A stretch of DNA of 64,000 nucleotides from a virus. Its lineage: Duplodnaviria > Caudoviricetes. The notes beneath the pieces are model-generated. The model had not been told where the DNA came from. It saw nothing but the letters and a program-made list of their open reading frames with translations, and searched no databases. The stretch covers positions 1,169 to 65,168 of the IMG/VR virus record IMGVR_UViG_3300028025_004186; one strand, 5' to 3'. Shown piece after piece: positions 648 through 57,000 of the stretch; positions within the stretch are counted from its first letter, which is position 1, and every line of letters begins with the position of its first letter. The position numbers and the translations under genes are program-made.

Positions 648-1427
648 ATGGACCACTATACAACACTAGGCGTACAACGCACAGCATCACAAGACGAAAT
701 CAAACAGGCCTATCGCAGATTGGCCGCAAAGCATCACCCTGATCGTGGCGGTGACACAGCTACATTTCAAAAGATACAGCAGGCCTATGATACCCTGGGC
801 AATGATCAACAGCGAGCTGCTTATGATCAACCACAGTCACCATTCCAAGGCTTCCAAGGTGGTGGACATTTCAACTTTGATGAAATCTTCAACATGTTTG
901 GTGCACGATTCCATGCGGGTGGACATCAACAGCAGCATCGGCAAGTGCGCATGAGTCTTTGGATTACCCTGCGTGATGTGGCAGTGGGCGGATCAAGACC
1001 TGTGGCAGTGAGCACTCAGCAAGGATCGACTACAATTGAAATCCAAATTCCCTCGGGCATTGAAGATGGTGATTCAGTACAGTATCCCAATTTGGCTCCA
1101 GGAGGCGGTGATCTTATTGTGACCTTCCGTATCCAACCCGACGACCGTTGGCAGCGCAATGGCAACACTGTTCTGCGTGAAGAACCCATATCCATTTGGA
1201 CATTGATCTCTGGTGGCTCGTTAACCATCACAACTCTTGCCGATGAGCGTATCACTGTGGCTATTCCCAGCAATACACAACCCGGAACCATGCTGCGTGT
1301 ACGCGGCAAAGGTCTGCCAAATCGGCAAGGGCAGCTGGGAGATCTAATAATAAAAGCACAGGCACAGATTCCTGCAAACATTTCTCCCCAACTGATGTCA
1401 GCGATTCGGCAAGAAACGGGCAGCTAA
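648..1427 (+). CDS. dnaJ: DnaJ class B (CbpA-like) co-chaperone
   Basis: J domain with HPD motif, G/F-rich linker, C-terminal domain, no zinc finger. Confidence 0.9.
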   Translation: MDHYTTLGVQRTASQDEIKQAYRRLAAKHHPDRGGDTATFQKIQQAYDTLGNDQQRAAYDQPQSPFQGFQGGGHFNFDEIFNMFGARFHAGGHQQQHRQVRMSLWITLRDVAVGGSRPVAVSTQQGSTTIEIQIPSGIEDGDSVQYPNLAPGGGDLIVTFRIQPDDRWQRNGNTVLREEPISIWTLISGGSLTITTLADERITVAIPSNTQPGTMLRVRGKGLPNRQGQLGDLIIKAQAQIPANISPQLMSAIRQETGS

Positions 1428-1430
1428 TAG

Positions 1431-1465
1431 TTGCAGTTAAATGGCAACCATGTTATACTTAAATA
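1431..1465 (+). promoter_or_regulatory. sigma70-type promoter followed by TAAATA late-promoter box
   Basis: TTGCAG-17nt-TATACT, then TAAATA. Confidence 0.55.
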
Positions 1466-1505
1466 CCAAAACAAATAGTGGTTCCAATACTCAACGGGAT
1501 ATAAC

Positions 1506-3770
1506 ATGCAAAACAATCCAGAAATCGAACAAATAGTTGATGCTGCTGTACGCATCGCACGTGACAAGAAAAACGCTTACATCACAGTAGAGCATGTGCT
1601 GTTGGCCATGGTGCGACATGCACCGTTTCGAAAAACTCTGGAAAAATTTGGCACCAATGTTGCGCTGCTGGAAGGCGATGTTGATGCTTACATTTCTGCA
1701 CAGAGCAATCATTCAAAAGATCCCACAGATCAGCCCAAGAAGACCAATGCCTTGGAGCGATTGTTCAATCGTGCGCTGACTCAGGTGATGTTTACCGGCC
1801 GCCGACAAGTAGTGACATTGGATCTCTATCTGTCAATGATGACTGAAACCAACAGTCATGCACAGTATTTTTTACTCAAACACGGCGTTACTAAAATTGA
1901 GTTTGCCACGTTCTGGCAGAAACATTATGTTCAAAGTGATGTCAAAATTACAGACGAACAAGCCGATGAAATACTCAGCGAGTACTGCACCAATCTCACT
2001 GCACAGGCACAGAAGTCTCAGTTGGAGCCGTTGATTGGGCGTGAAACTGAACTGCAGGAAATGATCACTATTCTAGCCAAACGCTTCAAGGCCAATGTGT
2101 TGATGGTGGGCGATCCCGGCGTGGGCAAGACTTGTATTGTAGAAGGTCTGGCACAGGAGATTGCTGCCGGGCGTGTGCCGGAATTCCTCAAAGGACACGA
2201 AGTCTGGAGCCTGGAAGTTGGCACACTGTTGGCAGGATCCAAGTACCGTGGTGAGTTTGAAGAAAAGTTCAAGATGGTGATCACTGCACTAGAAGCCAAG
2301 AAGAAATGCGTGTTGTTTATTGACGAAGCACACACCATCAAAGGTGCCGGTGCATCAGGATCAAACACCCTGGACATGGCCAATATGATCAAGCCTGCTA
2401 TCACCAAGGGGCATTTGAAAGTTGTGGCGTCTACAACTTGGGAAGAATACTACGAAAGTTTTGAAAAGGATCGTGCGCTGATGCGTAGGTTCTATCGCAT
2501 TACTATTGACGAGCCCAACACCGAAACCACAGAAAAGATTCTTATTGGCTTGAGTCCTAGATTAGAAACATTCCACAATGTGGAGATAACCACCGAAGCC
2601 ATTACATCTGCTGTGGAATTGGCCGAACGTTACATACACGACAAAAAGAATCCTGACAAATCAATTGATGTAATTGATGCTGCCTGTGCTAGGGAACGTA
2701 TCAAAGACATTGGTAATGTTGTACTCACACGCGATCTCATACAAGCACAGGTGGCCAAGATGACTGGTGTGCCCGTGGATCGTCTGCGCAACGAACAGAG
2801 CCTGAATGTAGTGAATCTTGAACCCAACATCAAATCTGCGCTGTACGGTCAGGATGAGGTGGTTGATCAGGTCTTGGAGCGAGTGTACATCAACTTTGCT
2901 GGCATTGCCAAAGCAGGTCGCCCCATGGCATCGTTTTTGTTTGTTGGCCCCACTGGCACAGGCAAAACTGAAATGGCCAAACTGTTGAGCAGTAACTTAG
3001 ACATGAAACTGCTGCGCTATGACATGAGTGAATATCAAGAAAAGCACACAGTATCCAGTTTGATTGGTGCTCCTCCGGGTTACGTGGGCTTTGAAGATGG
3101 CAACGTGGGCGGCGGTAAGTTGATCTCGGATCTCACCAAGAATCCTTTTGCTGTGATCTTGTTTGATGAAATTGAAAAAGCACACCCTGATGTCACCAAC
3201 ATTTTGTTGCAGTTGTTGGACGAAGGACGCATCACCAGTTCCAATGGCAAGACTGTGGACTGTAAAAATACCATTGTGATTATGACATCTAACCTGGGAT
3301 CACGCGACAACGAAAACAACAACATTGGCTTTGGCAACATGGAAAAAACCGGCGAAGAAGATCGTGCCATGCGTGAGTTCTTCAAACCTGAACTACGCAA
3401 TCGTATTGATCAAATCTGCAAATTCAATCGTTTGGACCAATTGGCCATCAAGAAGATTGTTGTGAAGTTTATTGATGAACTGCGTGGCACATTGACAGAA
3501 AAGAATATTCGTATCAATCTCACAGAAGCTGCTGTGGAATATTTGGCTGACAAGGGCTATGACTCCAAGATGGGTGCAAGACCCCTGGGACGTAAGATTG
3601 ATGAACTGATTCGTGTGCCGTTGTCCAAGCGTATGTTGTTTGATCGACTCACTGATTGCACAGTAAATGTAGACGTCGTTGATGATGCCGTAGATTTTAA
3701 TATTGTGCCTACAGTAACCCCCACAGTCAACAGTGAAGGATATATAGTTGTCGACAATATTACAATTTAA
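1506..3770 (+). CDS. clpA: ATP-dependent Clp protease ATPase subunit ClpA
   Basis: Clp N domain, two AAA+ modules (GDPGVGKT, GPTGTGKT), GAPPGYVG pore loop, IGF ClpP-docking loop, no ClpB coiled coil. Confidence 0.9.
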   Translation: MQNNPEIEQIVDAAVRIARDKKNAYITVEHVLLAMVRHAPFRKTLEKFGTNVALLEGDVDAYISAQSNHSKDPTDQPKKTNALERLFNRALTQVMFTGRRQVVTLDLYLSMMTETNSHAQYFLLKHGVTKIEFATFWQKHYVQSDVKITDEQADEILSEYCTNLTAQAQKSQLEPLIGRETELQEMITILAKRFKANVLMVGDPGVGKTCIVEGLAQEIAAGRVPEFLKGHEVWSLEVGTLLAGSKYRGEFEEKFKMVITALEAKKKCVLFIDEAHTIKGAGASGSNTLDMANMIKPAITKGHLKVVASTTWEEYYESFEKDRALMRRFYRITIDEPNTETTEKILIGLSPRLETFHNVEITTEAITSAVELAERYIHDKKNPDKSIDVIDAACARERIKDIGNVVLTRDLIQAQVAKMTGVPVDRLRNEQSLNVVNLEPNIKSALYGQDEVVDQVLERVYINFAGIAKAGRPMASFLFVGPTGTGKTEMAKLLSSNLDMKLLRYDMSEYQEKHTVSSLIGAPPGYVGFEDGNVGGGKLISDLTKNPFAVILFDEIEKAHPDVTNILLQLLDEGRITSSNGKTVDCKNTIVIMTSNLGSRDNENNNIGFGNMEKTGEEDRAMREFFKPELRNRIDQICKFNRLDQLAIKKIVVKFIDELRGTLTEKNIRINLTEAAVEYLADKGYDSKMGARPLGRKIDELIRVPLSKRMLFDRLTDCTVNVDVVDDAVDFNIVPTVTPTVNSEGYIVVDNITI

Positions 3771-4446
3771 AACACGCAACCGGGATCGGTTATTCTTTGA
3801 TCAGTTCCAGTATGCGCTGAGATGTGAAATACCACATATCACAGCCATACGGAATTACACCGGAGACTTTGCTACAGACAGCGTACATACACATCGCATG
3901 TTGGAGATGATGAAACGTTGGCACAGTCATGTCCATGTCGTTGACTATGAATATGGCACAAAAAATCGGCACATGACTCCCAAAGAACGTGACAATGTTC
4001 TTGATTTCCTGTCACGGTTATGTGCTGCACCTGAATTAATACGTACTTCAGTGAGTGGCGGCGTGGCATATATCTACGGCAACAATCTTGACTTCTTAAC
4101 CGGCCTCACAGACAGCGATTACATTCACAGCCCTGAAATCACCGAAGTTTATCTTGATCGTCCCAGAGACACTGTGATGCTTAAGAAAAGCAACTATCAA
4201 TACCGCACGTATTTCAGGGACTGCAATATCACCGCGGAGAATCGTCAGTATTTGCATAACTGGATCCGCAATCAGCAAGATATACGAGTGAGCCCAGGGC
4301 TACAAGAATGGCTCACAAACAATTGGCGTAATCTATACTCCAATTACTTTTTTGATCACAATGACATACGTTTGACACAGATGCTGGGGCTGATTTTGCC
4401 CCGGGCGTTAAAAGCAACAAAAACTATTGTGATTGCCGCTAAATAA
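3748..4446 (+). CDS. hypothetical protein
   Basis: 232-aa ORF overlapping the clpA end. Confidence 0.6.
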   Translation: MSTILQFKTRNRDRLFFDQFQYALRCEIPHITAIRNYTGDFATDSVHTHRMLEMMKRWHSHVHVVDYEYGTKNRHMTPKERDNVLDFLSRLCAAPELIRTSVSGGVAYIYGNNLDFLTGLTDSDYIHSPEITEVYLDRPRDTVMLKKSNYQYRTYFRDCNITAENRQYLHNWIRNQQDIRVSPGLQEWLTNNWRNLYSNYFFDHNDIRLTQMLGLILPRALKATKTIVIAAK

Positions 4447-7906: not shown

Positions 7907-10900
7907 ATGAACATTGATGAACTTGACAACTTTAACCTTGATGATGCAATAAGATTCCACAACCAGCTAAACCCTGGTTTGTGGGACCAAAAAGAGCATT
8001 TACGACCCGAAGTGCGCGAAGCATTGTTGCGTATTGCTGATGACTTTCGCGAGTTCCTGGGCGTACAAGATCTTCAAGTCAAAGACATTACTATAAGTGG
8101 CAGCAACGCCGCTTACACCTATACCCCCCACAGCGACATTGATCTACATCTGGTAGTTGACATACCCGAGTTGTATGATCCGGTGTATCGTGAACTGTTC
8201 AATGCCAAGAAGTATGAATACAATGACCGTCACAACATACGTGTTCGTGATGCTGATGTAGAGTTGTATGTGCAGCCCAGTGATGACACACATCACAGTC
8301 AGGGCATTTATTCAATCAAAGACAATAAATGGATTCAGGTACCACGACGTCGTAAAGCCACAGTGGATGACCTTGCAGTGCGCCACAAGTACGAAGACCT
8401 AGTGGCACGTATTGATCAAGCCATCAAAGACAGCAACAATGAATCTGCTGCTGCGTTGATGAAAAAAATACGCAACATGCGTCAGACTGGACTAGATCAA
8501 CACGGCGAGTTTGGTGCAGAAAATCTTGCGTTCAAGATGTTGCGCTCACAAGGGTATATTAAAAAGTTATCTGATGCAGTGGCAGCAGCCAAGGATCGTG
8601 AGCTAAGTCTTAAAGAACGTAAGAAACCCAAAAAGAAAAAACGCTATGGATATGGTGGCTATTGGTATCCTGGCTTCAGTTGGGGCGACAGCAGCGGATC
8701 GTCTGAAGGCGGTGACGGTGGTGGCGGCGGCGAGTCTGTGCGTGAAGATGCCGGCAGTACCTGGGATGGAGTAAGTCCCACCACTTGCATGTTTACCAAC
8801 GAAGCTGACAGTGAAGACAGTCGTCGTGACATCATAAAGAAGTTTGCCGGACTGTGCGCACAACATTTAAAACTTAAAAAAATTCCTCGTATCATATTGA
8901 AAAAGACTCCGCAGTGGAGTGAGGAAACTGGAAGCTTTGGCCAATACCAGCCAGATGAACATACACTGATCTTGAGTTTGCCAGGACGTCACATACTTGA
9001 CGTGCTGCGCACCATGGCACATGAACTAACTCATGCACAACAAGAAGAACGTGTGGGACTGCCAGTGGGTGCAGGCGACACTGGATCACCCTGGGAAAAC
9101 GAAGCCAATGCTCGTGCTGGTATTCTCATGCGTCACTTTGCTGAACGTCATCCCGAATACTTCAGCAATGTCAGCATAGCCGAAGCCAGTGGTTATATTC
9201 CTACTCGAGCACAAGCCCGAGATCCTAGATTCAGCATGGCTCTGACTGCGGACATCCAACCTGGTGAACTGGGTCGTCAGGCCAACAAGCTGGGATTACA
9301 AACAGACTCACAAGGGCGTCCAGCACTCCTAATGAAGAGTCTGGCTCGTCAGTTGCGTGAATACAAAGAAACACCGCGTAAAAAGAGCCTGGTGATATTT
9401 GACATTGATGATACCTTGTTACATACCACTGCCAAAATCAGAGTTGTGAGTCGTGGACGTGTGGTGCGTGAACTCACCAATCAACAGTTCAATCATTATA
9501 AACTGCAGCCCGATGAAGAGTTTGACTTTGGCGAATTTAGAAATGCTGAGAAGTTCAATCGCGAAAGCGAGCCCATCAAGCCCATGGTTCGCAAACTAAA
9601 AACTATATTGATCAACTCGCCTGACAGCGATGTGATCATGCTCACAGCACGAGCAGATTTTGATGACAAAGAATTATTTTTAAAAACATTCCGTGATCTT
9701 GGCATAGACATGAGTCGTGTGCATGTACATCGTGCTGGTAACTTGCCTGGTGATGCCATCCCTGCAGAAAAGAAAGCAGTATGGGTTCGCAAATATCTCA
9801 ACACTGATCGTTATGACCATGTGAGACTGTATGATGACTCTGTGACCAACCTCACTGTGTTCAAAGATCTACGTCAGGAATATCCTGGCGTGGACTTCCG
9901 TGCAATCTATGTTGGCCCTGAAGGCACAACCAAGCCCATAGAAGAAGATGAAGAATCTTATGAAATTGACGATGGCAATGATCCACCAGGACCAGAGTCA
10001 CCGCCCCAGTTCCCCTCGGGTACTGTCAAGGTAGATGTGTCAGATGTGTATGATTGGTACAAACTAGGCCAAGGCATATCTGACATTGATGACATGAACA
10101 AGAAAGATTTTGGCCAAGGACCACCCAGCACTGTGTTGGCGTTTGGTTCTGAAGATCTGGAACATCAATACATCAAAGCCTTGAAATCTCTGGGATTGCC
10201 TGTGCATGATCTTGATGAACCCGGCGAAGAAGACCTTGATGAATCTGCTGGCGTTGACTTGTTTGAAATCAACATGAGCCCCAGCAATCTTCGGAAGATG
10301 GCTGCCAAGACTGGCGCCATAGCCGGCATGGAATTTGAAATGTATGTGCCCGGTGCTGCCGAAGCCGACGAAGATGAATATGGATCTGAGCCAGACTATG
10401 AAATGGACGAAAGTTTTCCAACTGGTCGTGGATATCAAAGCGAGGTCATAGATTTCTTTAGAGGTGGCGATAATGGCAGTCCTAGAAGCACAATTCAACG
10501 TGCGCTTGATGTCTTAAGTGAAGATTACTGGTCATGGAAAGACGAAAACTTTGAGGAATGGTTAAATGACAATGATACATTGCTAGACTACTATCTCAGA
10601 GAAGAACTTCCTCAGGAAGATGATGAAAGCGACGACCAATACACAGAACGATTGGGCAGCGACGATGAAGAAGTTCGGCAGGCACAAGATCGGGCCATGG
10701 ATCGGGTGCGTGAAGAACACCAAAACGAAGATCAATTTGAAGAATTTTTACAAGACGCCGACATCAGATCCATGGCCGACTTTGGTAGCAATTACGACGT
10801 AGAATGGCCTTATTATAACTACCCTGAAAGCAGAGGTGGTAGTATAGACATCGACGATGTCGCCAGCGACTTTCAATCAGCTATTGGTCGCAGAGTGACC

Positions 10901-12865
10901 ACAGGCGGATATCACAGTGGTGCCAGCTCACAAACCAACAACTATCGTGTAGAAACAGACAGCAGTCTTAGCGATCCTGCCAATCCCGAAGACGGTGGCT
11001 TGGAGTTTATCAGTCCTCCACTGCCCTTGGATGAAATGTTGTCAGATCTAGACAAGGTAGTTAAATGGGCGCAGCGCAACGACTGTTACACCAACGATAC
11101 CACCGGCTTGCACATGAATGTCAGTGTTCCTGGCTTTGAACTCAGCAAACTTGACTATGTTAAGTTGGCTATATTCCTGGGCGATGAATATGTGTTGGAT
11201 CAGTTTGGTCGTGCTGGTAATACCTACTGCGCCAGTGCCATGGAAAACATTAGAAAGATTGCTCGAACCAATCCTGACAAAGTCAAAACTATGTTGCAAC
11301 AGATGCAGGGTAATCTCAGTGCCATGGCATCAAAGATTGTACACACCGGCACCACAAACAAATATACCAGTATCAACACCAAAGATGGTTACATTGAGTT
11401 TCGCAGTCCCGGCGGTGATTGGCTAGACGAATATGCCAACAACGAAGATAAAATCAACAATACCTTGCTGCGTTTTACAGTGGCATTGGACATTGCCATG
11501 AAGCCTGAGTTGTACAGACAAGAGTACATGAAGAAGTTGTACAAGACTCTGTCCCAGGGCGAGAGCGATGACACTATTCAATTCTTTGCACGTTATGCTG
11601 CTGGTGACTTGCCACAGTCAGCCCTGAAGAGTTTTGTCAAGCAAGCGCAAATACAGCGTAAAGCTAAAAAACTACTTCCTGGCGCAATCAAAGGGCAACA
11701 ATTAATTAGATGGCAGGCCACTTCAGGAGCAGCTACCGGTACTGTTGTGGCACGTACCGAAGAGGAAGCTAGAAAGAAAGCTGCTGTCAATATTGGTATT
11801 CCTTTCACTGATCGTGCCATAGACACCATGAACATACAGCCCTTGGATCTTTATACCGGACCTGTTAATCAATACAATATCATCAGAGACGATAGTGGGT
11901 TTGACCTTGGCGCTTTTGAAGGTATTGATGAACGCGATGCTATCACAAACTTCCGAGTGCAAAAACCACAGTGGAGCAACACTGATGTAACTGCTCGATT
12001 AGTAACATCAACTCCAACTCCTCCAGATTATCCAGCAGCGACGAGCAATACCCCAGGTTCGTGGACCATTATGAATCAATCAACTCGTAATATGTTACAA
12101 GGTGTTGGTGGCACATTCATTTATGCCTCTCGTGCTGCACGGGAGATAGCCCAAGATAACAATATTCGTCATGCAGAGATCCGTATCATAAACACCGACA
12201 ATGGTCAGGTCTTTGACATTGACGGAAATCCTGCTAGATACGGCACAGAATCAAATACTCGCGGTGGTGGATTTGCCCGAGCACCACACACCAGCATATA
12301 TCAAGTGGTTGATAATAGAGACGGGCAAATAATATTACGCGGCGCAACACGAACTTTTGCATACACGGTTGAAATGACCAACATATACATTGGTACTCCT
12401 AGATATAACCTTACCCCTGAAGATATTAGAATTGTTGATCTTAATACCAACACTGCCTATAAAATAGATGGTTCACCTGCTAATGCATCTGCACCAGCAG
12501 CACAAACAGAACAACTTTATAATGTTAGATGGACAGATGAAAATGGCGAGCACGACGTAAATCGTAGAGCCCCAAATGCCAATGCTGCCATGGAAGATGT
12601 TCGTAACAGTTTAGAAAGCGGTGGATTTAGAGTGGCCTCTATAGAAGCCAATCCCATAGGACAGACACAAGGTCAAGCACAAGGATCGGACAGTTTACCA
12701 TCAGGGCAGGCTCGTTGGTTGATACTGGATCGCAATGATCGTGAAGTTTATTCGTTTGTAGGTAGTACAGCACAACGTGACGCCAATGATATTGCCAGGA
12801 ACTGGCTAACTGCCAATGCTCAAGATGGACAAGGGCCTTTTACTGTGGTGCCGGTGTCAAGATGA
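7907..12865 (+). CDS. 1652-aa polyvalent protein: Pol-beta nucleotidyltransferase + HExxH metallopeptidase + HAD + amidoligase + C-terminal repeats
   Basis: GSNAAY..SDIDLH; AHELTHAQQ..E; FDIDDTL..YDDS; GMEFE..TDSSL..GLEFISP..TGLHMNVS..IEFRSPGG; repeated ~60-aa units at the end. Confidence 0.8.
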   Translation: MNIDELDNFNLDDAIRFHNQLNPGLWDQKEHLRPEVREALLRIADDFREFLGVQDLQVKDITISGSNAAYTYTPHSDIDLHLVVDIPELYDPVYRELFNAKKYEYNDRHNIRVRDADVELYVQPSDDTHHSQGIYSIKDNKWIQVPRRRKATVDDLAVRHKYEDLVARIDQAIKDSNNESAAALMKKIRNMRQTGLDQHGEFGAENLAFKMLRSQGYIKKLSDAVAAAKDRELSLKERKKPKKKKRYGYGGYWYPGFSWGDSSGSSEGGDGGGGGESVREDAGSTWDGVSPTTCMFTNEADSEDSRRDIIKKFAGLCAQHLKLKKIPRIILKKTPQWSEETGSFGQYQPDEHTLILSLPGRHILDVLRTMAHELTHAQQEERVGLPVGAGDTGSPWENEANARAGILMRHFAERHPEYFSNVSIAEASGYIPTRAQARDPRFSMALTADIQPGELGRQANKLGLQTDSQGRPALLMKSLARQLREYKETPRKKSLVIFDIDDTLLHTTAKIRVVSRGRVVRELTNQQFNHYKLQPDEEFDFGEFRNAEKFNRESEPIKPMVRKLKTILINSPDSDVIMLTARADFDDKELFLKTFRDLGIDMSRVHVHRAGNLPGDAIPAEKKAVWVRKYLNTDRYDHVRLYDDSVTNLTVFKDLRQEYPGVDFRAIYVGPEGTTKPIEEDEESYEIDDGNDPPGPESPPQFPSGTVKVDVSDVYDWYKLGQGISDIDDMNKKDFGQGPPSTVLAFGSEDLEHQYIKALKSLGLPVHDLDEPGEEDLDESAGVDLFEINMSPSNLRKMAAKTGAIAGMEFEMYVPGAAEADEDEYGSEPDYEMDESFPTGRGYQSEVIDFFRGGDNGSPRSTIQRALDVLSEDYWSWKDENFEEWLNDNDTLLDYYLREELPQEDDESDDQYTERLGSDDEEVRQAQDRAMDRVREEHQNEDQFEEFLQDADIRSMADFGSNYDVEWPYYNYPESRGGSIDIDDVASDFQSAIGRRVTTGGYHSGASSQTNNYRVETDSSLSDPANPEDGGLEFISPPLPLDEMLSDLDKVVKWAQRNDCYTNDTTGLHMNVSVPGFELSKLDYVKLAIFLGDEYVLDQFGRAGNTYCASAMENIRKIARTNPDKVKTMLQQMQGNLSAMASKIVHTGTTNKYTSINTKDGYIEFRSPGGDWLDEYANNEDKINNTLLRFTVALDIAMKPELYRQEYMKKLYKTLSQGESDDTIQFFARYAAGDLPQSALKSFVKQAQIQRKAKKLLPGAIKGQQLIRWQATSGAATGTVVARTEEEARKKAAVNIGIPFTDRAIDTMNIQPLDLYTGPVNQYNIIRDDSGFDLGAFEGIDERDAITNFRVQKPQWSNTDVTARLVTSTPTPPDYPAATSNTPGSWTIMNQSTRNMLQGVGGTFIYASRAAREIAQDNNIRHAEIRIINTDNGQVFDIDGNPARYGTESNTRGGGFARAPHTSIYQVVDNRDGQIILRGATRTFAYTVEMTNIYIGTPRYNLTPEDIRIVDLNTNTAYKIDGSPANASAPAAQTEQLYNVRWTDENGEHDVNRRAPNANAAMEDVRNSLESGGFRVASIEANPIGQTQGQAQGSDSLPSGQARWLILDRNDREVYSFVGSTAQRDANDIARNWLTANAQDGQGPFTVVPVSR

Positions 12866-13443
12866 GAGCTGCAGAATTCATCACCGAAGCCAATAGAAGT
12901 GGGCTACCAAGACTGTCAGTGCAGGATCAAATTCGTGCTGCTGTGAAAAAAGATGGTGGCCGTGCTGACGAATACTTTGTGAGATTTACCGGTGTTGACC
13001 GTGTAGGCTTCAGTGCTCGTCAAGTGTTTGGTCGTACTCCTGATGCCGACGATCCCAAGTTTGATCCTGATTATATTGGTGCCGGCAAAGGTCGTCCAGC
13101 ACTGTGGTTCTATCCTTTAAACACTTATCTCAAATCCCGCGATATTTTTGCCAGCGAACATCCTTACATATGGTTAGTGCGTATTCGTCCTGATGCTTGG
13201 TTACAACCTATTCGCAACAATACTCGAGGTATACAAGCAGCACCTCAAGGCAAGCATCGTGTGGGCATGATGCGGTTGACTGGCGGTTTTCCTGCTGCAA
13301 TTTTCTTTGAACCGGCATTTGATGTTGTGGGACGCTTTTACGACTATGCCAAAATGCATCAAAGACACGGTGAAGTGCAAGGCGCTCCCAAAACATCCAC
13401 CTCTAAAAATCTGTTAAATAAGTTCAAAGGATTGTTTAAATGA
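12862..13443 (+). CDS. putative internal head protein (CTS-like leader), possibly ART-like fold
   Basis: MRAAEFITE start; YFVRFT..LWFYPL; fold call is speculative. Confidence 0.55.
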   Translation: MRAAEFITEANRSGLPRLSVQDQIRAAVKKDGGRADEYFVRFTGVDRVGFSARQVFGRTPDADDPKFDPDYIGAGKGRPALWFYPLNTYLKSRDIFASEHPYIWLVRIRPDAWLQPIRNNTRGIQAAPQGKHRVGMMRLTGGFPAAIFFEPAFDVVGRFYDYAKMHQRHGEVQGAPKTSTSKNLLNKFKGLFK

Positions 13444-14060
13444 GAGCCGTTGAATTTATCGCTGAAATAGATCGTCGGGGGTTCCTAGGAGCCTTGGGTG
13501 CCGGTGCCATGGCTGCTGCTGGAGTTCCTGCACAAGCAAAATCCAAGAAGCCCGAGCCAATGGCCTTCTTGAGTTCAAACATGGATGCCGAAGAAATGCT
13601 GCACAAGACTGCGCTTCGTGCTGGCATTCGTGGCACAGAACTAGCACAGTTTCTAGCACAGTGTTATCATGAATCAGCAGGCTTTGGTCGTATGCATGAA
13701 TATGCCACGGGAAAAGAATACGAAGGACGTCAAGACTTAGGTAACATATACAAGGGCGACGGTGTTAGATACAAAGGGCGCGGCTTTATACAGATCACTG
13801 GCAGAGACAACTATCGTCGTGCTGGGCAGGCCTTGGGATTGCCACTAGAAGATAAGCCTGAGTTAGCCAGCAGACCCGACATTGCTGCAAAGATCGCTGT
13901 ATGGTACTGGGCAAATCGTGTCAGACCCAATGTTGCTAACTTCAATGACACTCGTGCTGTCACACAACGTATTAATCCCAAGTTACTTGGTTTGGCAGAC
14001 AGACACGAAAACTTTAAAGATTACAAGAATATGTTTATTGCCACAAGGACCGGAACGTGA
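13440..14060 (+). CDS. GH19 chitinase/lysozyme-like muramidase with CTS-like leader and Tat-like signal
   Basis: QFLAQCYHES, YEGRQDLGN, DG.RYKGRGFIQITGRDNY; MRAVEFIAE then DRRGFLG..AQA. Confidence 0.85.
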   Translation: MRAVEFIAEIDRRGFLGALGAGAMAAAGVPAQAKSKKPEPMAFLSSNMDAEEMLHKTALRAGIRGTELAQFLAQCYHESAGFGRMHEYATGKEYEGRQDLGNIYKGDGVRYKGRGFIQITGRDNYRRAGQALGLPLEDKPELASRPDIAAKIAVWYWANRVRPNVANFNDTRAVTQRINPKLLGLADRHENFKDYKNMFIATRTGT

Positions 14061-15352
14061 GAGCTCAAGACTTTATCACAGAAGCACCACGTGACGTATT
14101 CCACTTTGTGGGACAGAGTCATAACGTCCCACGTCCCACAGGTAGTTACTATAAATGGCGTGTGAGTCTCAGCAACGGACAATACTATCATGTCCGAGCT
14201 GGTGCCAATACTGACTTAGAAAAATTCAAGAAATACTTTCAACGTAAATGGGGCGCAGAAATGCCTGACGTTGAAGTTGTCAAGGCCGAACGTCTGGAAA
14301 GACTCAGTGAAGAAGATTCTCAAAAAGAATGTCCGCCAGCCACGCAAGATATCACCATCAATCTTGAGAATAGACAAAAAGCCATTGATGAGTACGGATA
14401 CGGTCCACTGAACCCAGACTTGCCCAATCGTAAGTTCTGGATGGCCAAAGTTGACGAGTGGAACCTGGACTCTGCAGAAGAAGCAAAACAAAGCCTGTGC
14501 GGTAACTGTGCAGCATTTGATCAACGTCAAGCAACCTTGGACTGTATTGCTCAAGGCATAGACAGTGACAATCCCGAAGACGCCGAAGGCGTTATTGACG
14601 CCGGCGAGTTAGGATATTGTAAATTTTTAAAATTTAAATGTGCCAGTCGTAGAACCTGCGATGCATGGGTAACAGGTGGTCCACTCACAGACCAACAAGA
14701 TGTAGATGAAATGGCCGGCACAATAAATGCTGGTATTAGTCAAGCATTGGCCAACAAAGGATACAAATATCTAGGCGGAGGAATTGACAAGCAAGCATAC
14801 CTAGAGCCAGGTACCGGACAGGTGTTGATCATATTTGGCTATCGCAAAGGCCAAAAAGATTTTAGCCCTGATCAACGTATGTTTATAAACTGGATAAACT
14901 ATTGCAATAAAAATAAAAATAATCCACACTTGCCTAGATTTTCAGGATTTGAAAGTTTCAAATTCCAAGGCAAAAACTATATTCAAGCAAGAATGGAACC
15001 ACTGCAAGAGTTACCTGATGAAATAGGATATCTAGTTGGACACGCTGATGAAGTTATAAAGAAACGCAAAACAGATTACAAAAAAGAACTTAAAACAATG
15101 TCACAGTATGCTATGCATACGTTTAATGACGAAGGCGGCGGTACATGGTATGAGTTAAAAGACACCGTAAAGCATTTGGGTGGTAAAAAAGCAGCAGTGA
15201 ATTTACTAAACACAGTGTATGATGTCAAACGTTTTGGACGTAAGCAAGGATACACAATTGATTTACACAAAGGAAATTACATGCGACGAGCCGACGGTAC
15301 CATCGTTGTAAATGATCCTTATGTGTTATGGCTAGGAGGGCTGCTAGATTGA
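14057..15352 (+). CDS. putative internal head polyprotein: Cys-rich domain + protein-kinase-like domain
   Basis: GTG start, MRAQDFITE; CGNC..C..C..C domain; after the QDVDE linker YLGGG, ARME.L, DLHKGNYM..VVNDP. Confidence 0.7.
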   Translation: MRAQDFITEAPRDVFHFVGQSHNVPRPTGSYYKWRVSLSNGQYYHVRAGANTDLEKFKKYFQRKWGAEMPDVEVVKAERLERLSEEDSQKECPPATQDITINLENRQKAIDEYGYGPLNPDLPNRKFWMAKVDEWNLDSAEEAKQSLCGNCAAFDQRQATLDCIAQGIDSDNPEDAEGVIDAGELGYCKFLKFKCASRRTCDAWVTGGPLTDQQDVDEMAGTINAGISQALANKGYKYLGGGIDKQAYLEPGTGQVLIIFGYRKGQKDFSPDQRMFINWINYCNKNKNNPHLPRFSGFESFKFQGKNYIQARMEPLQELPDEIGYLVGHADEVIKKRKTDYKKELKTMSQYAMHTFNDEGGGTWYELKDTVKHLGGKKAAVNLLNTVYDVKRFGRKQGYTIDLHKGNYMRRADGTIVVNDPYVLWLGGLLD

Positions 15353-16242
15353 GAGCCACTGAATTCATAGCAGAAGGTGCCACTGATATATTGTATCATT
15401 ATACTGGCATCAATTCGGCTCTTAAAATACTCACCAATGGCGAATTTGAGTTGAGCAGTGTCACAGGCAATCCGTCTGAAGAACAATATGCTCCCCCAGG
15501 TTATCCTTACTTTTTATCTACCACTCGCAGTCGTGTGGGCGATTATCATAGATGGGTTGGCAGCAGTGCTGTGATGTTTGTGTTGGATGGACAATGGCTG
15601 CAGCAGCGTTATCCAGTCAAGCCGGTTGATTATTGGAATCGTTCTTGGTTACACAGTGGTGGCAGCAGAAGCAGAGAAAGCGAAGACCGAGTGTTCAGTC
15701 GTGATCCCACTATTGCCACTGGCGGTGTCAAGATGATTCATGTTCTACTGAAAGAACAGCACGAAAATAGATCTCCAGAAGTTAGAAAATTATTGATACT
15801 GGCCAAACGATTGGACATACCTGCTTATTTGTACGACGACGAGCAGGCCTGGAGATTACAAGACACACGCAAAGCCATCACTGTGGGGCAAGCTGCCTCA
15901 CTGTTAAAAGGACAGGATCCTTCACCAAGAAGTTATGGAAGAAAATATCTATCAAAATGGCTGGAGTTGATACACAAGAAAGCCAGTGATGAGTTAAGCA
16001 AAGAAGCCAATCGCATGGCGTATAATATGAAATACTATTCGCTTGATGGATTGTACAATCTGGACATTGATATGAGCAACGCCAGAAAACCCGGCTCCAG
16101 TGATCATGACCAAGCTGTTAAGATTATCAGTTATATGCGAGCCAACAGAATCACAACATTGCAGCAACTACTGAATCATCTCCGAGACAAGTGGACAGCA
16201 ATTGGCGAAAAAGAGCAAGCAGCGAAAAAGGCACAGCAATGA
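15349..16242 (+). CDS. putative internal head protein, ADP-ribosyltransferase-like (start moved to TTG 15349)
   Basis: (M)RATEFIAE leader overlapping the upstream TGA; LYHYT..FLSTTRS..ESEDR order matches the ART H/R-S-E scaffold. Confidence 0.55.
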   Translation: MRATEFIAEGATDILYHYTGINSALKILTNGEFELSSVTGNPSEEQYAPPGYPYFLSTTRSRVGDYHRWVGSSAVMFVLDGQWLQQRYPVKPVDYWNRSWLHSGGSRSRESEDRVFSRDPTIATGGVKMIHVLLKEQHENRSPEVRKLLILAKRLDIPAYLYDDEQAWRLQDTRKAITVGQAASLLKGQDPSPRSYGRKYLSKWLELIHKKASDELSKEANRMAYNMKYYSLDGLYNLDIDMSNARKPGSSDHDQAVKIISYMRANRITTLQQLLNHLRDKWTAIGEKEQAAKKAQQ

Positions 16243-17546
16243 GAGCCCAAGAATTTATTGTAGAAGCGTTTGATCAACCTTACGCGACAGATTTAGAAAA
16301 ATCCGAACATGATGATTATGACTCATTGGTGCAATTGCCAGATGGTTCCCACTTGAGCATTATGTTTAATCACCAAGGCGATGACGAATATCAAGTTGAA
16401 TTTTGGCGAGGGCCTAGTCAGGAAGTAACCGGCGAAGGTGATGCACAAAGAATATTTGCTACAGTTCTGAGTACTATACAAAAGTTTATTAAAGAACATA
16501 ACCCGTGGCGGTTGACATTCTCAGCAACCAAAGACGTTGAGCCCGGGCAGAACAGTGAAAGCAGAGCCAAATTATATAATAGATTAGTTGATCGCTATGC
16601 TGCTGCTTGGGGGTATGATGCCCTTATTAATGATCTTGGTGACCAAGTTGAATACGAGTTGACTAGATTAAAGCCGGGTGTGACGGAAGACGCAATGCGA
16701 GGTGTGATCTATATTAAACCCAATTTAGAAAATGAATGGCCTGAAGCAAATCGTTATCCAGAATTTCATAAGTTAGGCAAGGATCAGTGGATTAAAATTG
16801 CTCGGCAAGGTAGTATGGCCAAGTGGTCAAGTTTAAAAGATGTTGGCAATTTTGATAGTGATTTATCTAATTTAGAACCAGGAAAAAGAAAAAGAGCGGC
16901 GGTACAGGTAAATCGTGGCAAAGTTGAACTACCTATCGTGGGTCGTTGGCCTAACGGTGAGTTGGATCTAATTGCTGGCAACACTCGTACTGCTACACTA
17001 TTAGATCAAGGACATGATCCTAAAGTTTGGGTTGTAGATGTTCCTGATGTTGATATCAAAGAAAACTTTGCTGATGGCAAGACGCCAGTCCAACCAGTGA
17101 TTGCTGCCATACAAAAAGTCATGCCCATAGCACAAGAAATATGGTTCCATGGCAGTCGTGCTACAGGTCGGCATCGTAGAAATAGCGACACTGACATCTT
17201 GGTGGTTGTGCCTGATGACCTCGTGGGAGATCAGTATCTTGGTGTGGTAAGAATATTACAAAACCTTTCTGCACATTTTGACAATTATGACATACAACCA
17301 ACTAAGGCAGGAACCAATATACATCAAATTGCACAAGAAGAAGGTAAATTACTGTGGTCAACAACAAATGAAAACTTTGCCGATGGCAAGGTCAAGGGCA
17401 AAAGTCGTCCGGGTCGTGTAAAACGTTCAGGTGCAAGTTGTGCAGGATCGGTAAGTAGTTTAAGAGCCAAGGCCAAACGCAGTGGAGGCGAACGTGGCAA
17501 GATGTATCACTGGTGTGCTAACATGAAGTCAGGAAAGAAAAAATGA
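16239..17546 (+). CDS. putative internal head polyprotein: unknown domain + ParB/Srx-like + minimal nucleotidyltransferase + basic Cys microdomain (start moved to 16239)
   Basis: MRAQEFIVE; LPIV..LIAGNTR; FHGSRATG..SDTDILV; ENFADGK occurs twice. Confidence 0.7.
   Translation: MRAQEFIVEAFDQPYATDLEKSEHDDYDSLVQLPDGSHLSIMFNHQGDDEYQVEFWRGPSQEVTGEGDAQRIFATVLSTIQKFIKEHNPWRLTFSATKDVEPGQNSESRAKLYNRLVDRYAAAWGYDALINDLGDQVEYELTRLKPGVTEDAMRGVIYIKPNLENEWPEANRYPEFHKLGKDQWIKIARQGSMAKWSSLKDVGNFDSDLSNLEPGKRKRAAVQVNRGKVELPIVGRWPNGELDLIAGNTRTATLLDQGHDPKVWVVDVPDVDIKENFADGKTPVQPVIAAIQKVMPIAQEIWFHGSRATGRHRRNSDTDILVVVPDDLVGDQYLGVVRILQNLSAHFDNYDIQPTKAGTNIHQIAQEEGKLLWSTTNENFADGKVKGKSRPGRVKRSGASCAGSVSSLRAKAKRSGGERGKMYHWCANMKSGKKK
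17061..17390 (+). repeat. 21-nt direct repeat (17061-17081 and 17370-17390) flanking a nucleotidyltransferase module
   Basis: GAAAACTTTGCTGATGGCAAG vs GAAAACTTTGCCGATGGCAAG (20/21 identical). Confidence 0.9.
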
Positions 17547-17968
17547 GAATACGCGATATAGTTGAAGCAGCTGACTTGGATCTTGATGCCATGAAAACCA
17601 ACATAGCTGCTGGCACCGATGCAGTTGATACCACTAACCCAGTCAAGTCCCTTCCTGGGTCGTCTAAGTCCACAGCAAGTCTTGGCATGACCCCGGCACA
17701 GTCAGCAGTTATTTCTGCCAGCGATGTAGACAAGGCCATAAATCTTGGTAAATCAGTGCAGTCTAATTTAGAGAAACAAATTGCCGACACCACAACACAA
17801 TTAAAAGTTGCGCAAACAATGCCAGCAGGTGCCACAGTCAAAGGCATGTCTGGGCCAGTGGGAGGTCCTGCTACCAATTGGGTTGGCAAGACTGCGCAAG
17901 GTGCCCCCGCAGGTGGAGGCATAGTAAAGAAACCACCAACAACCAGTCAGAAATTTCCTTTAAAATGA
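17543..17968 (+). CDS. putative internal head protein, low complexity
   Basis: MRIRDIVE leader; ATGA coupling. Confidence 0.6.
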   Translation: MRIRDIVEAADLDLDAMKTNIAAGTDAVDTTNPVKSLPGSSKSTASLGMTPAQSAVISASDVDKAINLGKSVQSNLEKQIADTTTQLKVAQTMPAGATVKGMSGPVGGPATNWVGKTAQGAPAGGGIVKKPPTTSQKFPLK

Positions 17969-18354
17969 GAGCCACTGAATTCATCGTTGAAACCCCGGTA
18001 CGTGACTTGACTAGAGCACTGCGAGCCAACTCAAATCACGACTACAATACCATTGACGGTGAAATGACTGCCATCTCTCTACACTACGACATCACTCCCA
18101 AGCAGTTACATGATCGCTTTGTCAAACGCTATGGCAAGACTCCCGACGAATGGATCAAATCACAAAGTGTTGATGAAGCCGGCACAGGATTGTTCTGGAG
18201 AACCTATCCCTGTACCAAAGATTGTTCAGGTCATCAAGCCGGTGATCAATGGGCACAGATTCGCGGAATAAAAAATCCTGCACAATGCCCCTTGGGCAAG
18301 TCCAACAGTTGGTGGGAAGGCTGCAAAAGCGAAGCCGAAGGTCGCCCTTATTAA
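17965..18354 (+). CDS. putative internal head protein with C-terminal Cys module (start moved to 17965)
   Basis: MRATEFIVE; QSVDE linker; CTKDCSGHQAG..C..EGC. Confidence 0.65.
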   Translation: MRATEFIVETPVRDLTRALRANSNHDYNTIDGEMTAISLHYDITPKQLHDRFVKRYGKTPDEWIKSQSVDEAGTGLFWRTYPCTKDCSGHQAGDQWAQIRGIKNPAQCPLGKSNSWWEGCKSEAEGRPY

Positions 18355-18387
18355 TTGTCTGCTACCTTGGGTAGCGTAAATATCCCC

Positions 18388-20232
18388 ATGCAGCGTAACG
18401 TCTATCTCTATGCCCCTAACTTCGTCTCAGGTCTTGGTTCTGTGACCACAGTGTGGTTGCCTTACACAGTGGGATGCCTGTGGAGTTATGCAGTGACCAA
18501 TCCCACAGTGGCCAGTAACTATCGCCTGGCAGGCCTGGGTGTGTTGCGTGATCCCATTGAGCAAGTTGTTGGCAGTCTTGACAATCCTGCAGTGTGTGGA
18601 TTCAGTACCTATGTCTGGAACGAACAGTACAATCTTCAATTGGCACAGGCCATCAAACAACGTTGGCCTGACTGTGTAATTGTGTTTGGCGGACCCAACG
18701 TGCCCAATCAAGAACAAGACTATCGTGACTGGCGAGCTGCTGCACCTTGGATTGATGTCACCATACGCTACGAAGGTGAGCAGGCATTTCAACAGATGTT
18801 GCTGGACAACCTGTCAGGTGATCTCAAGAAAGATTATGTGGCCACTAGACTTGAAGAGTTGGATATCCCCAGCCCCTATCTCACCGGTGTGTTTGACAGC
18901 ATTGTACAGGATCAGAGTCATCAATATGCCATGACATTTGAAACAAATCGTGGTTGTCCGTTTGCCTGTACGTTCTGTGACTGGGGGAGCCTGACTTACA
19001 GTAAAATTAAAAAGTTTTCCCTGGAGCGTGTGTTTGCAGAAATTGACTGGGCCGGAAAGAATCAAATTGAGTTTGTTATCATAGCCGATGCCAACTTCGG
19101 AGTGTTTCCAGATCGCGATCAAGCCATTGTTGATCATCTCATTGCCACCAAACAACAGTGGGGATACCCACAACAGTTAAACACCAATTGGTATAAAAAT
19201 TCCAATCAGGTAGTGTTAGACATCGCTGAAAAACTCACCCAGCATGGATTAAATCGTGGACTCACACTCAGTGTGCAGAGCATGAACGATGCCACACTCA
19301 CAGCAATCAAACGCAAGAACATGCGTATCAATGATCTCAGTACACTGTTCCGTGACTGCAATCGCCGACAAATACCTTTCTATACTGAACTAATCCTGGG
19401 CTTGCCCTTGGAAACTCTAGACTCCTGGCAGCAAGGACATTATCAACTGTTGGAGATGGGACAACATGGATGCGTGTTTGTATTTCCTGTGGAGTTATTG
19501 CGCAACAGTGAGCTAGGCATCAATCATCAACAGTATCAAATACAGAGTGCAACCATTGATGACTACTGGCGTTGTGAGGTCACAGGTATCAATGAGAAGC
19601 AGCACATTGTAATGAGTCACAGCACCATGACTGCCAAAGATCATGTCGCTGCCACAATGTTCAGTTGGATGATTGTGACTTTTCATCATCACGGATGGAC
19701 AGAAATCTATGCTAGATTTTTACACAGTCAGGGCTGGAGTTATCAACAGATATACTCAAGTCTGGAGCAATGGCTGCGCAACGACGAATTCTTTCTAGCT
19801 CAAATCAACACTATCCAACAGGGCGTTGAAGCATTTTATCTACATCAGCAAAGCACAGATTATTATGGAATTTGGGACACAGTTCGGGCATTGTTTGCTG
19901 ATCGTGACCAAAGTTGCCAACGCCTGACTCAGTGGTTCCTCTCTGTGTACACCGGAGAGTTGGCCTGGCAGGTAATTGAATTGCAACAAGCGTTTATCAC
20001 AGACCCCAATTTTAGGAGCAAACTTGTGCTGACACAGCCCAATAATTTATTGAGCGTGATACTGGAGTTTGATGCAGAATTACACAACAGCGAGCACAGT
20101 TATGAATTTTGCCCCACGTCTCAATGGCAGGATACCGAGGAATTCATGGCCTATGTTGTGCTGAGAAGAAAAGAAGGCTTTGGTAAAAATCGTATTGTAG
20201 CACTGGGGCAGCAGTTAGAAAAACTATGCTAA
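18388..20232 (+). CDS. B12-binding-domain radical SAM enzyme (start moved to 18388)
   Basis: FSTYVWN, VFGGP, ETNRGCPFACTFC (CxxxCxxC), DANFG, ILGLP. Confidence 0.85.
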   Translation: MQRNVYLYAPNFVSGLGSVTTVWLPYTVGCLWSYAVTNPTVASNYRLAGLGVLRDPIEQVVGSLDNPAVCGFSTYVWNEQYNLQLAQAIKQRWPDCVIVFGGPNVPNQEQDYRDWRAAAPWIDVTIRYEGEQAFQQMLLDNLSGDLKKDYVATRLEELDIPSPYLTGVFDSIVQDQSHQYAMTFETNRGCPFACTFCDWGSLTYSKIKKFSLERVFAEIDWAGKNQIEFVIIADANFGVFPDRDQAIVDHLIATKQQWGYPQQLNTNWYKNSNQVVLDIAEKLTQHGLNRGLTLSVQSMNDATLTAIKRKNMRINDLSTLFRDCNRRQIPFYTELILGLPLETLDSWQQGHYQLLEMGQHGCVFVFPVELLRNSELGINHQQYQIQSATIDDYWRCEVTGINEKQHIVMSHSTMTAKDHVAATMFSWMIVTFHHHGWTEIYARFLHSQGWSYQQIYSSLEQWLRNDEFFLAQINTIQQGVEAFYLHQQSTDYYGIWDTVRALFADRDQSCQRLTQWFLSVYTGELAWQVIELQQAFITDPNFRSKLVLTQPNNLLSVILEFDAELHNSEHSYEFCPTSQWQDTEEFMAYVVLRRKEGFGKNRIVALGQQLEKLC

Positions 20233-20239: not shown

Positions 20240-20545
20240 ATGCGCTGCGAATTTGTTCAAGTTGTGTGTGATGTGGACTGTAAATGGGAAGGGTTATCCC
20301 CAGCCTACAGGGCCTATATCAACGATGAATTATTTGCCGAGCGTACTTGGATATGGACAGAACATTACCTAGAAGAAATGTTTCAAATTTCAGCACTGCC
20401 GGGCAAGTATCATATCAGATTTGAACTAGTACAGCCTTGTTTGGCTGAATTAACAGTGACAAATATGCGTGTGGTACAAGGGCCAGGGCGCATGAAAAGC
20501 GGTGGATTATTGAAGATTGGAAGCACAGAACATGAGAGCCAGTGA
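20240..20545 (+). CDS. hypothetical protein
   Basis: ORF directly after a TAAATA box. Confidence 0.6.
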   Translation: MRCEFVQVVCDVDCKWEGLSPAYRAYINDELFAERTWIWTEHYLEEMFQISALPGKYHIRFELVQPCLAELTVTNMRVVQGPGRMKSGGLLKIGSTEHESQ

Positions 20546-20723
20546 ATTTATCAATGAAAATGTCAGCGTAGGGGCAACAGGCGCAGGATCAATTGCCTCA
20601 ACCATGGGCGGACTTAGTCACATGCCTGCTGTGAGCCGCTTAGGTGGAAACTTACTAACTGGTAAATATACAAACGTGGCTACGCCAAATACACCAAAGA
20701 AGAGGAAAAATCGTGCTAAGTGA
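20532..20723 (+). CDS. small putative internal head protein (start moved to 20532)
   Basis: MRASEFINE leader, Gly/Ser/Thr-rich body, basic tail. Confidence 0.65.
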   Translation: MRASEFINENVSVGATGAGSIASTMGGLSHMPAVSRLGGNLLTGKYTNVATPNTPKKRKNRAK

Positions 20724-25831: not shown

Positions 25832-26860
25832 ATGAAATCCGAGACACTTGTTTACTACAAATACAAACCTACAGTAAAACCAAATCTTGCAGGTAAATTC
25901 TGCGCAATACCATTTTCAATGATTGAAATTGATGAAGATGGAGATGTGATGTTATGTGGGTGTCAGTACCATATGCCCTACGTGATTGGCAATATATATC
26001 ACGATTCTATCAGTGACATATGGCAAAACCCATCAGCAAAAACAGTGCGTGATAGTGTGGTTGCAGGAGAGTTTACTTACTGCAATTGGACTTGTCCAAA
26101 TCTTCAAAATGCCCCGCAGCGACCGGACGTAATCCCAGATCCAGGAGTATTTCCAGTTTGGGTTAAAATTGATCTTGATCGTAGCTGTAATTTACGATGT
26201 CCATCATGTCGTGAAACTGTAATTCAAGAAAAAGACAATGCACGTATTGCCAAACAACAAGAAATTTTTTCTGAAATCGTCACTCGAGCGGCCGGTGACC
26301 CTGATGTCAGCTACACTGTATTCCCAATCGGCAGCGGTGAAGTATTTGCTAGTCGAAGCGGATTGCATTTTTTAAAATCTTTGACCAATTATCCACACAA
26401 TAATATACAACTGGCAATATGTACCAATGGTACATTGTTATGGCACCACCGCGAACTAGTTGATCAACTTCAACATCACATGTCATTTACTGTCAGTATT
26501 GATGCTGCCACAGCTGAAACCTATGCTCTAGTACGCGGAGGTAACTGGGAAGAATTACAATTGGGCATAGACAGGTATCAAAAAAACATTCAGCACTTTA
26601 CTTTTGTAGTACAGGAAAAAAATTGGCATGAGATTGAGTTGATTGCTGAATACGCCGATCAACTGGGCAAACGAGTTGATTATCAAAAGTTTTTAGATTG
26701 GGGGCATTGGACCAATGACTGGTGGCACGAAAATAATCCCTTGGATCGACATAAAGCTCACTATCAAACTGTGCTTGGCGCATTGAATCAGGTGCGGCAA
26801 CGCTATCCAAAATGTACGTTTTCTACTGAGATAATAAATTTAATGAACAAGGTCAAATAG
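25832..26860 (+). CDS. radical SAM protein with N-terminal SPASM/twitch-like domain
   Basis: C..PF..IEIDEDGDVMLC..IGN; CNLRCPSC; TNGT. Confidence 0.85.
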   Translation: MKSETLVYYKYKPTVKPNLAGKFCAIPFSMIEIDEDGDVMLCGCQYHMPYVIGNIYHDSISDIWQNPSAKTVRDSVVAGEFTYCNWTCPNLQNAPQRPDVIPDPGVFPVWVKIDLDRSCNLRCPSCRETVIQEKDNARIAKQQEIFSEIVTRAAGDPDVSYTVFPIGSGEVFASRSGLHFLKSLTNYPHNNIQLAICTNGTLLWHHRELVDQLQHHMSFTVSIDAATAETYALVRGGNWEELQLGIDRYQKNIQHFTFVVQEKNWHEIELIAEYADQLGKRVDYQKFLDWGHWTNDWWHENNPLDRHKAHYQTVLGALNQVRQRYPKCTFSTEIINLMNKVK

Positions 26861-56625: not shown

Positions 56626-56631
56626 GATTAA

Positions 56632-56795: not shown

Positions 56796-56800
56796 TTTAT

Positions 56801-56990: not shown

Positions 56991-57000
56991 AAAGAACGTT

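Follow-up and report, generated by a model that had tools for sequence, protein, structure and literature searches.

A predicted twin-arginine signal behind a candidate capsid-targeting leader on a GH19 peptidoglycan hydrolase of uncultured jumbo phages

To which compartment, and of which cell, would a phage direct a wall hydrolase whose export signal begins only at its tenth residue? The question is raised by open reading frame (ORF) 13440..14060 (plus strand) of a 64-kb stretch of DNA, referred to here as the window, which was taken out of a 65,168-bp virus contig (IMG/VR record IMGVR_UViG_3300028025_004186, positions 1,169 to 65,168). The ORF encodes 206 amino acids (aa) in three modules: a leader that resembles the capsid-targeting sequence (CTS) of phage T4 (residues 1-9), a predicted twin-arginine translocation (Tat) signal (residues 10-33) and a GH19 peptidoglycan hydrolase domain (residues ~46-206). 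An earlier note on this DNA, made from the sequence alone, proposed that the protein is addressed in two steps, first into the capsid and then, after ejection, through the host Tat pathway to the periplasm. The comparative data presented here lead to the same reading, with a probability of about one half; from them we infer packaging, cleavage, ejection and export.

A leader, a predicted Tat signal and a GH19 domain in one protein

The leader, MRAVEFIAE (13440..13466), ends in I-x-E. T4 ipII and ipIII both begin with MKTYQEFIAE and have EFIAE in common with it, which bears out the capsid-targeting look that had been attributed to the leader. According to the available part of PMC9026906, the first 10 residues of IPIII are enough for packaging, the gp21 cleavage site lies after L/I-x-E, the tag positions that matter for targeting differ from those that matter for processing, and CTS fusions are packaged and then delivered into the infected cell. 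Allowing up to one mismatch, the window has six matches to the DNA pattern that encodes M-R-A-x-E-F-[LIV]-x-E, where 100 shuffles predict 0.01, and all six are on the plus strand at the starts of ORFs (12862, 13440, 15349, 16239, 17965 and 20532). Degenerate forms of the leader on two further genes, at 14057 and 17543, bring the total to eight leader genes. The eight proteins have no cross matches beyond residue 10 (blastp, E<=0.01), and the leader codons differ synonymously among the eight genes. Thus, the leader is a shared tag on otherwise unrelated proteins rather than a sign of paralogy. Both a tag of about 10 residues ending in L/I-x-E and its presence on several unrelated proteins of one phage, as in T4, are seen here; the leader resembles a T4-type CTS, for which it is a candidate on sequence grounds, and its I-x-E is the predicted cut site of a gp21-type prohead protease.

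The predicted Tat signal peptide (residues 10-33; 13467..13538, plus strand) consists of D-R-R-G-F-L-G, an uncharged stretch and A-Q-A. The reading MRAVEFIAE / IDRRGFLGALGAGAMAAAGVPAQA / KS given in the earlier note is reproduced exactly in the ORF, and the Tat signal claimed there is recognized by NCBIfam TIGR01409 above its curated cut-off (20.5 bits, cut-off 16.7). Positions 1-20 of the model correspond to residues 10-29, so the match starts directly after Glu9, and without the leader the score is 20.6 bits. D-R-R-G-F-L-G conforms to the Tat consensus S/T-R-R-x-F-L-K. It leads into an uncharged Gly/Ala-rich stretch of 18 residues (14-31), then A31-Q32-A33, where signal peptidase I is predicted to cut before K34. 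The weakly hydrophobic Gly/Ala-rich N-terminal segment, GFLGALGAGAMAAAGVPA, is also a feature of signal-anchor-release (SAR) endolysins. In the precursor nine residues precede the signal, and a cut at the [LIVMF]xE site would be needed to bring the signal to the N-terminal position usual for Tat. Just two residues stand ahead of RR in some E. coli Tat signals, that of CueO among them, so the processed N-terminus would be a normal-looking Tat signal.

A basic linker of variable sequence follows (residues 34-45; 13539..13574), in which the family alignment is gappy and the AlphaFold2 (AF2) confidence is low to about residue 40. The GH19 domain (13575..14057) is intact, as had been proposed. PF00182 matches residues 62-163 above its cut-off (E=1.7e-11, 44.8 bits, cut-off 25.5), the endolysin family PHROG 181 matches with E=8e-41, and solved GH19 phage endolysins are matched (7r6s, E=2.4e-24; 9ms7, 1.9e-21; SPN1S 4ok7, 5.3e-16). 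The catalytic residues Glu78 (nucleotides (nt) 13671-13673) and Glu87 (nt 13698-13700), a pair about nine residues apart, are invariant across 42 aligned relatives and align with HES...E of 7r6s and 9ms7. The AF2 model has a mean predicted local distance difference test (pLDDT) score of 82.8, with residues 1-36 below 50 and the core (45-206) above 85, and its top Foldseek matches are GH19 endolysins and chitinases (probability 1.00). The product belongs to GH19 and is of the phage endolysin type, with a predicted muralytic activity.

The ATG of the ORF stands 8 nt behind a Shine-Dalgarno-like AAAGGA (13426..13431, plus strand) and overlaps the stop codon of the upstream gene (ATGA), which suggests translational coupling. 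We also considered whether translation could begin internally and yield a Tat precursor that lacks the leader; this was rejected, with ATG at that codon in just four of 13 distinct loci and TTA, ATA or ATT in the others.

Conservation of the N-terminal module

Homologues of the ORF 13440 product are widespread in environmental jumbo-phage contigs (1313 at E<=0.001). The window protein and the 120 best of these were taken as the family set of 121 proteins. RRx[FLIM][LMIF] is found upstream of the GH19 domain in 101/121. Both R and the F are invariant in these 101, of which 100 also have the L, and S, D or T stands directly ahead of RR in 99. The distance from the end of [LIVMF]xE to RR is 2-3 residues in 96 of them and no more than 10 in 100, P0032 being the exception, and A.A follows 10-36 residues on in 98. 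No other part of the first 45 residues is as well conserved as the RR/F/L core, in relatives down to 46% identity. TIGR01409 scores reach 26 and 28 bits in P0080 and P0088, and precomputed matches to the Pfam model TAT_signal (PF10518) exist for 6 of the 120 relatives. Four proteins carry neither this signal nor the second, RR-less type weighed below: P0020, P0021 and P0113 lie on short contigs and begin at an internal Met, whereas in P0029 a Pro/Thr linker is seen.

The RR is internal, at residue 65-167, in 26 of the 101 RR-type proteins. The extra N-terminal domains that precede it are of at least seven unrelated kinds, among them a cytidine deaminase (P0017) and the N-terminal portion of a homologue of the neighbouring gene (P0010). 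In P0004, TIGR01409 matches at residues 120-141 (18.5 bits). The leader in such proteins stays at the far N-terminus and [LIV]xE is kept exactly at the junction, so proteolysis there would expose the signal.

The junction-plus-signal module is also found ahead of other cargo, namely LysM followed by GH19 in L048 and non-GH19 cargo in L035, L038 and L040. The ORFs L035:983-1957 and L038:1425-2936 encode a cytidylyltransferase-like domain, V-E-E or I-D-E, an internal Tat-like signal (17.8-19.1 bits, under the Pfam cut-off) and a domain of about 80 residues of no known family, and have no N-terminal leader. L040:2525-4540 and L048:2-1957 are large ORFs with repeated Q-G-V-A-E-G linkers between domains; the former is a 671-aa protein with an unassigned domain behind the module. 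By sequence, both resemble polyproteins that would be processed at V-x-E. A search with residues 1-45 as query returned only GH19 proteins and one frameshifted copy, with no new cargo, in the 113-361 aa class.

The phage and its relatives

The source of the window is an uncultured jumbo phage, of which the contig represents 19% by CheckV completeness. Its family-B DNA polymerase gene (27169-29835) is nearest to those of 350-490 kb myoviruses (Phosso 50%, Atu_ph07 45%, fHe-Yen9-04 and Serratia BF 43%). A complete 374-kb metagenomic relative, G001, has a DNA polymerase 73% identical to that of the window and is syntenic with it in the order DnaJ, Clp, GH19, DNA polymerase. The relatives of the lysin-bearing phage are uncultured T4-type jumbo phages. 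In G001 the head genes stand in the order portal gp20 (E=4.6e-106), S77 protease (E=3.6e-25), a 373-aa protein with 20 L/I-x-E sites, and major capsid protein gp23 (E=9.7e-98). PF03420, the gp21 protease family, is found in four of the five complete and three of the five partial lysin-carrying genomes; the prohead protease and T4-type head that a T4-type CTS would call for are thus present in relatives of the window's phage.

No near-identical DNA to the window was found in cultured phages, and the N-terminal module was not seen among the best 40 records listed from a collection of 50,697 cultured-phage records. A phage-borne TatA was found in none of the five relatives. The T4 late-promoter motif TATAAATA has no occurrence in the window (2.07 expected).

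A second GH19 gene in the relatives

Each of the five complete relatives has a second open frame, of 207-239 aa, that matches GH19, though more weakly. Neither a leader nor a signal is seen in the second GH19 ORFs (four of 206-219 aa and one of 209 aa in G001). Directly behind the second GH19, G001 and G004 have a gene for a protein with an N-terminal transmembrane (TM) segment and a coiled-coil-like part, and next to this a small gene for a lipoprotein whose lipobox reads L-S-G-C. This is the usual arrangement of endolysin, i-spanin and o-spanin, the spanin assignment being putative. The cassette of G001 lies about 3 kb beyond DnaJ, which by synteny is just past the end of the window's contig; the contig itself has no lysis cassette. 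The Tat-GH19 protein is probably not the lysis endolysin of the phage, because the relatives hold a separate, signal-less GH19 that is flanked by spanin-like genes in two of the five. The lysis-cassette setting of a SAR-type endolysin is likewise not seen for ORF 13440, which lies in a cluster of leader genes and differs from the lysis-type GH19 of the relatives. A T4-lysozyme domain was not found in four of the five complete relatives and an SLT domain was found in none, other hydrolase families not having been searched.

The stretch of G004 that holds its spanin-like genes (L114; G004:118800-125300, minus strand) has, at 4027-4407 and between the i-spanin-like and o-spanin-like genes, a leader-type gene for a 126-aa protein beginning MKINEIITEA. 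The cultured 221-kb Achromobacter phage Motura encodes a 499-aa protein with two TM-like segments ahead of GH19 (L116:1733-3229). It was considered as a cultured counterpart of the Tat-GH19 protein and set aside, being of a different build, with TM-like segments and no leader. Motura has another way of coupling a membrane segment to GH19.

Two-step addressing and its alternatives

In the favoured reading, the leader would act like the T4 CTS and direct the protein to the prohead's scaffolding core. There the cut would be made after Glu9, between I-A-E and I, by a gp21-type prohead protease, leaving a protein that starts with a minimal Tat signal (I-D-R-R-G-F-L-G...) and remains in the head. 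On ejection it would enter the next host's cytoplasm together with the DNA, fold there and be exported by the host TatABC. Signal peptidase I would then cut after A-Q-A, releasing into the periplasm a soluble GH19 muramidase or glycosidase that would cut peptidoglycan early in infection. The Tat-GH19 protein may well be a pre-pro-enzyme with two stacked address labels. Two-step addressing is the simplest account because both labels are conserved, the first cut would expose the second label, and a separate lysis-type GH19 exists. Every sequence element that the earlier note named for it is present and the comparative data agree; virion presence, cleavage at Glu9, ejection and Tat-dependent export are the parts that we infer.

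Several observations weigh against this reading. As regards the signal, the window protein scores 16.3 bits with PF10518, under that model's cut-off of 22.7, and P0034 and P0017 are slightly under the TIGR01409 cut-off. Tat cannot be the whole story for the family, because 16/121 proteins have a Gly/Ala-rich hydrophobic segment without RR, mostly after E-G-W-K-D ('EGWKDW'). This class has a weaker A.A and no Tat match, and most of the more distant loci examined are of this type. Its segment too can be internal, in five of the 16 and in most of the distant loci. Moreover, Tat is not always blocked by an N-terminal extension, and an uncleaved signal may still work; the internal position is therefore suggestive of unmasking and not proof of it. 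As regards the phages, the lysin and the strict leader pattern are each found in none of four cultured polymerase relatives (Phosso, Atu_ph07, fHe-Yen9-04 and Vibrio 2.275.O), G004 is the one complete relative of five without a PF03420 match, and the second GH19 of G002, G003 and G005 precedes a protein of 825-886 aa instead of spanin-like genes. No prohead protease match lies within the window's contig, which says little since the contig is a 19% fragment. Finally, we know of no benefit of exporting a lysin early in infection.

The RR-less class, and with it most of the distant loci, would be explained if the lysin were packaged and processed in the way set out above, came out of the tail tube with the tip still in the periplasm and acted there directly, cutting peptidoglycan locally to aid penetration. 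Tat would be unused, and the Gly/Ala-rich hydrophobic N-terminus would anchor in the inner membrane or perturb it. Internal core proteins with lytic domains exist, such as T7 gp16, and the cultured phage Motura has its GH19 protein with TM-like segments. Additionally, a virion wall hydrolase could otherwise be missing, as a T4-lysozyme-type domain was not found in four of the complete relatives, nor an SLT domain in any of the five. This account is nevertheless considered unlikely, as it leaves unexplained the RR and F of the Tat core (101/101) with its L, the match to the curated Tat model, and the A.A conserved in 98/101; and T4 internal proteins go to the cytoplasm (available part of PMC9026906).

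Another account dispenses with the virion. The protein would be an auxiliary lysin that the producing cell exports, through Tat or in a SAR-like manner, and that lysis would release or activate. The leader would then have another role, such as translation coupling, marking the boundary of a recombination cassette, or recognition by the Clp/DnaK chaperones of the phage. Endolysins with a Gly/Ala-rich N-terminal signal or SAR domain exist (P1 Lyz, fOg44 Lys44), a nine-residue extension need not block a Tat signal, and the phage encodes DnaJ, a Clp ATPase and DnaK. Tat can carry an endolysin fused to a Tat signal, as reported in the available part of PMC9527704. However, the leader fits the key positions of the T4 CTS and the relatives have the matching protease and head module. 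The protease motif stands directly before the signal in 100/101, including the 26 internal cases, an internal start for a leaderless product is unsupported (ATG in 4/13), and the relatives have a signal-less GH19 with spanin-like neighbours. This account is therefore also thought improbable. The related alternative of the earlier note, a holin-independent endolysin exported by Tat, is less favoured than two-step addressing because of the 26/101 internal signals with [LIVMF]xE, the gp21-type protease and the separate GH19. It is very unlikely that the Tat-like stretch is a functionless relic of a bacterial donor gene. GH19 domains 34-56% identical to the ORF 13440 product do occur in many bacterial assemblies, but in the best 80 of these loci the N-terminal module is absent, none matching the first 18 residues of the query, and the conservation of the RR/F/L core also speaks against a relic.

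If two-step addressing is correct, it may extend beyond one enzyme, although this broader proposal is put forward tentatively. The uncultured T4-related jumbo-phage clade would run a general 'pre-loaded periplasmic effector' system, in which CTS-tagged proteins or polyproteins might be cut by the prohead protease at [LIV]xE before an RR or 'GWKDW' export signal. The pieces could then ride the virion and use the export machinery of the new host to reach the periplasm, with GH19, LysM-GH19 and others as cargo.

Neighbouring genes and other features of the window

ORF 13440 is flanked by further leader genes, all on the plus strand. Upstream is a gene of no known family (12862..13443; MRAAEFITEA, 193 aa), and directly downstream is a gene with a GTG start and a degenerate leader (14057..15352; MRAQDFITEA, 431 aa), the C-terminal part of whose product weakly matches a T7 0.7-like kinase PHROG (E=3.8e-4). 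These are followed by a gene with a TTG start (15349..16242; MRATEFIAEG, 297 aa) and one whose product has a Pol-beta-type nucleotidyltransferase domain (16239..17546; MRAQEFIVEA, 435 aa; E=4.8e-7). The second degenerate-leader gene (17543..17968; MRIRDIVEAA, 141 aa), a gene for a 129-aa protein (17965..18354; MRATEFIVET) and a small gene for a 63-aa protein with a basic C-terminus (20532..20723; MRASEFINEN) complete the set. The enzyme-like parts of the products of 14057-15352 and 16239-17546 would fit injected host-takeover enzymes.

Ahead of the cluster, 7907-12865 is an ORF of 1652 aa for a multi-domain protein with nucleotidyltransferase, amidoligase_2 and DUF2608-like matches. It is without a leader, and its stop codon and the start codon of the first leader gene overlap. 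A chaperone set of DnaJ-like protein, Clp-type ATPase and DnaK is encoded at 648-3770 and 58980-60908. The Clp-type ATPase is 54% identical to that of G001, and the DnaK is about 68-70% identical to bacterial-type DnaK sequences in phage records. One speculation is that phage chaperones could aid the refolding of ejected proteins. Six tRNA genes (Cys, Glu, Ser, Trp, Arg and Gly) lie in 56548-62515, together with a tmRNA-like gene (62136-62515) with the tag peptide ANAANDEVFALAA. Radical-SAM-like ORFs are found at 18355-20232, 25832-26860, 34415-35659 and 41990-43117; one, of 625 aa, has a homologue in G001 (42% identical), and ORF 34415 matches radical-SAM PHROGs. Additionally, there is a taurine-dioxygenase-like gene at 50160-51260 and, as judged by eye only, a Dps-like N-terminus at 20713.

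Comparison with known systems and significance

The arrangement is like that of T4 IPI, IPII, IPIII and Alt in having a 9-10 residue N-terminal tag ending in I-x-E on several unrelated proteins and a gp21-type protease, here encoded in the relatives; the T4 cargo is delivered into the next host. It differs in that the tag is one residue shorter, the phage is roughly 340 kb, uncultured and not a member of the Tevenvirinae, and the cargo, the packaging of which is predicted here, has a second address, the Tat signal, that is not described for T4. The closest analogy for the two labels is in chloroplasts, where thylakoid-lumen proteins of the Tat pathway carry bipartite transit peptides. There too a protease removes a first label and exposes a twin-arginine signal, which is removed by a second peptidase. 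In this scheme the prohead protease would by analogy play the role that the stromal processing peptidase has for thylakoid Tat substrates. Unlike in chloroplasts, the first compartment would be a viral capsid and the second step would fall in another cell; the two systems are not related by evolution.

SAR and signal-peptide endolysins (P1 Lyz, phage 21 R, fOg44 Lys44) also have a Gly/Ala-rich, weakly hydrophobic segment ahead of a hydrolase. They are Sec-dependent lysis enzymes without RR and with the signal at the true N-terminus, unlike Tat-GH19. Solved GH19 endolysins (SPN1S 4ok7, PWe2 9ms7, P. aeruginosa 9eoi and 7r6s) share the catalytic domain, fold and Glu pair, but align to residues ~47-196 only, with nothing that aligns to the leader or the signal. 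In the ejection proteins of phiKZ and SPN3US, as described in the available parts of PMC9026906, PMC5694885 and PMC10052503, many head-internal proteins likewise have propeptides that are cut by gp21-like proteases after a short Glu-ending motif; those giant phages are of a different lineage with a different motif, and no export signal is reported for their proteins in those parts. In open-access full text and bioRxiv, no natural Tat signal was found behind a capsid-targeting leader or on an ejection protein; this literature covers T4 CTS work, Sec and SAR endolysins and an engineered Tat-signal endolysin (PMC9527704, in the part available).

The Tat-GH19 protein plausibly combines two known kinds of protein, a CTS-tagged internal protein and a Tat-exported wall hydrolase. 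The idea is directly testable because a T4 CTS of 9-10 residues already packages foreign proteins, as the available part of PMC9026906 reports. If it is true, this would be, within the literature searched, the first known virion-packaged phage protein with a host export signal that is unmasked by capsid maturation, and a natural case of Tat exporting a protein made in another cell. Addressing would then run across two cells and two compartments, and the reach of phage-injected proteins would extend from the cytoplasm to the periplasm.

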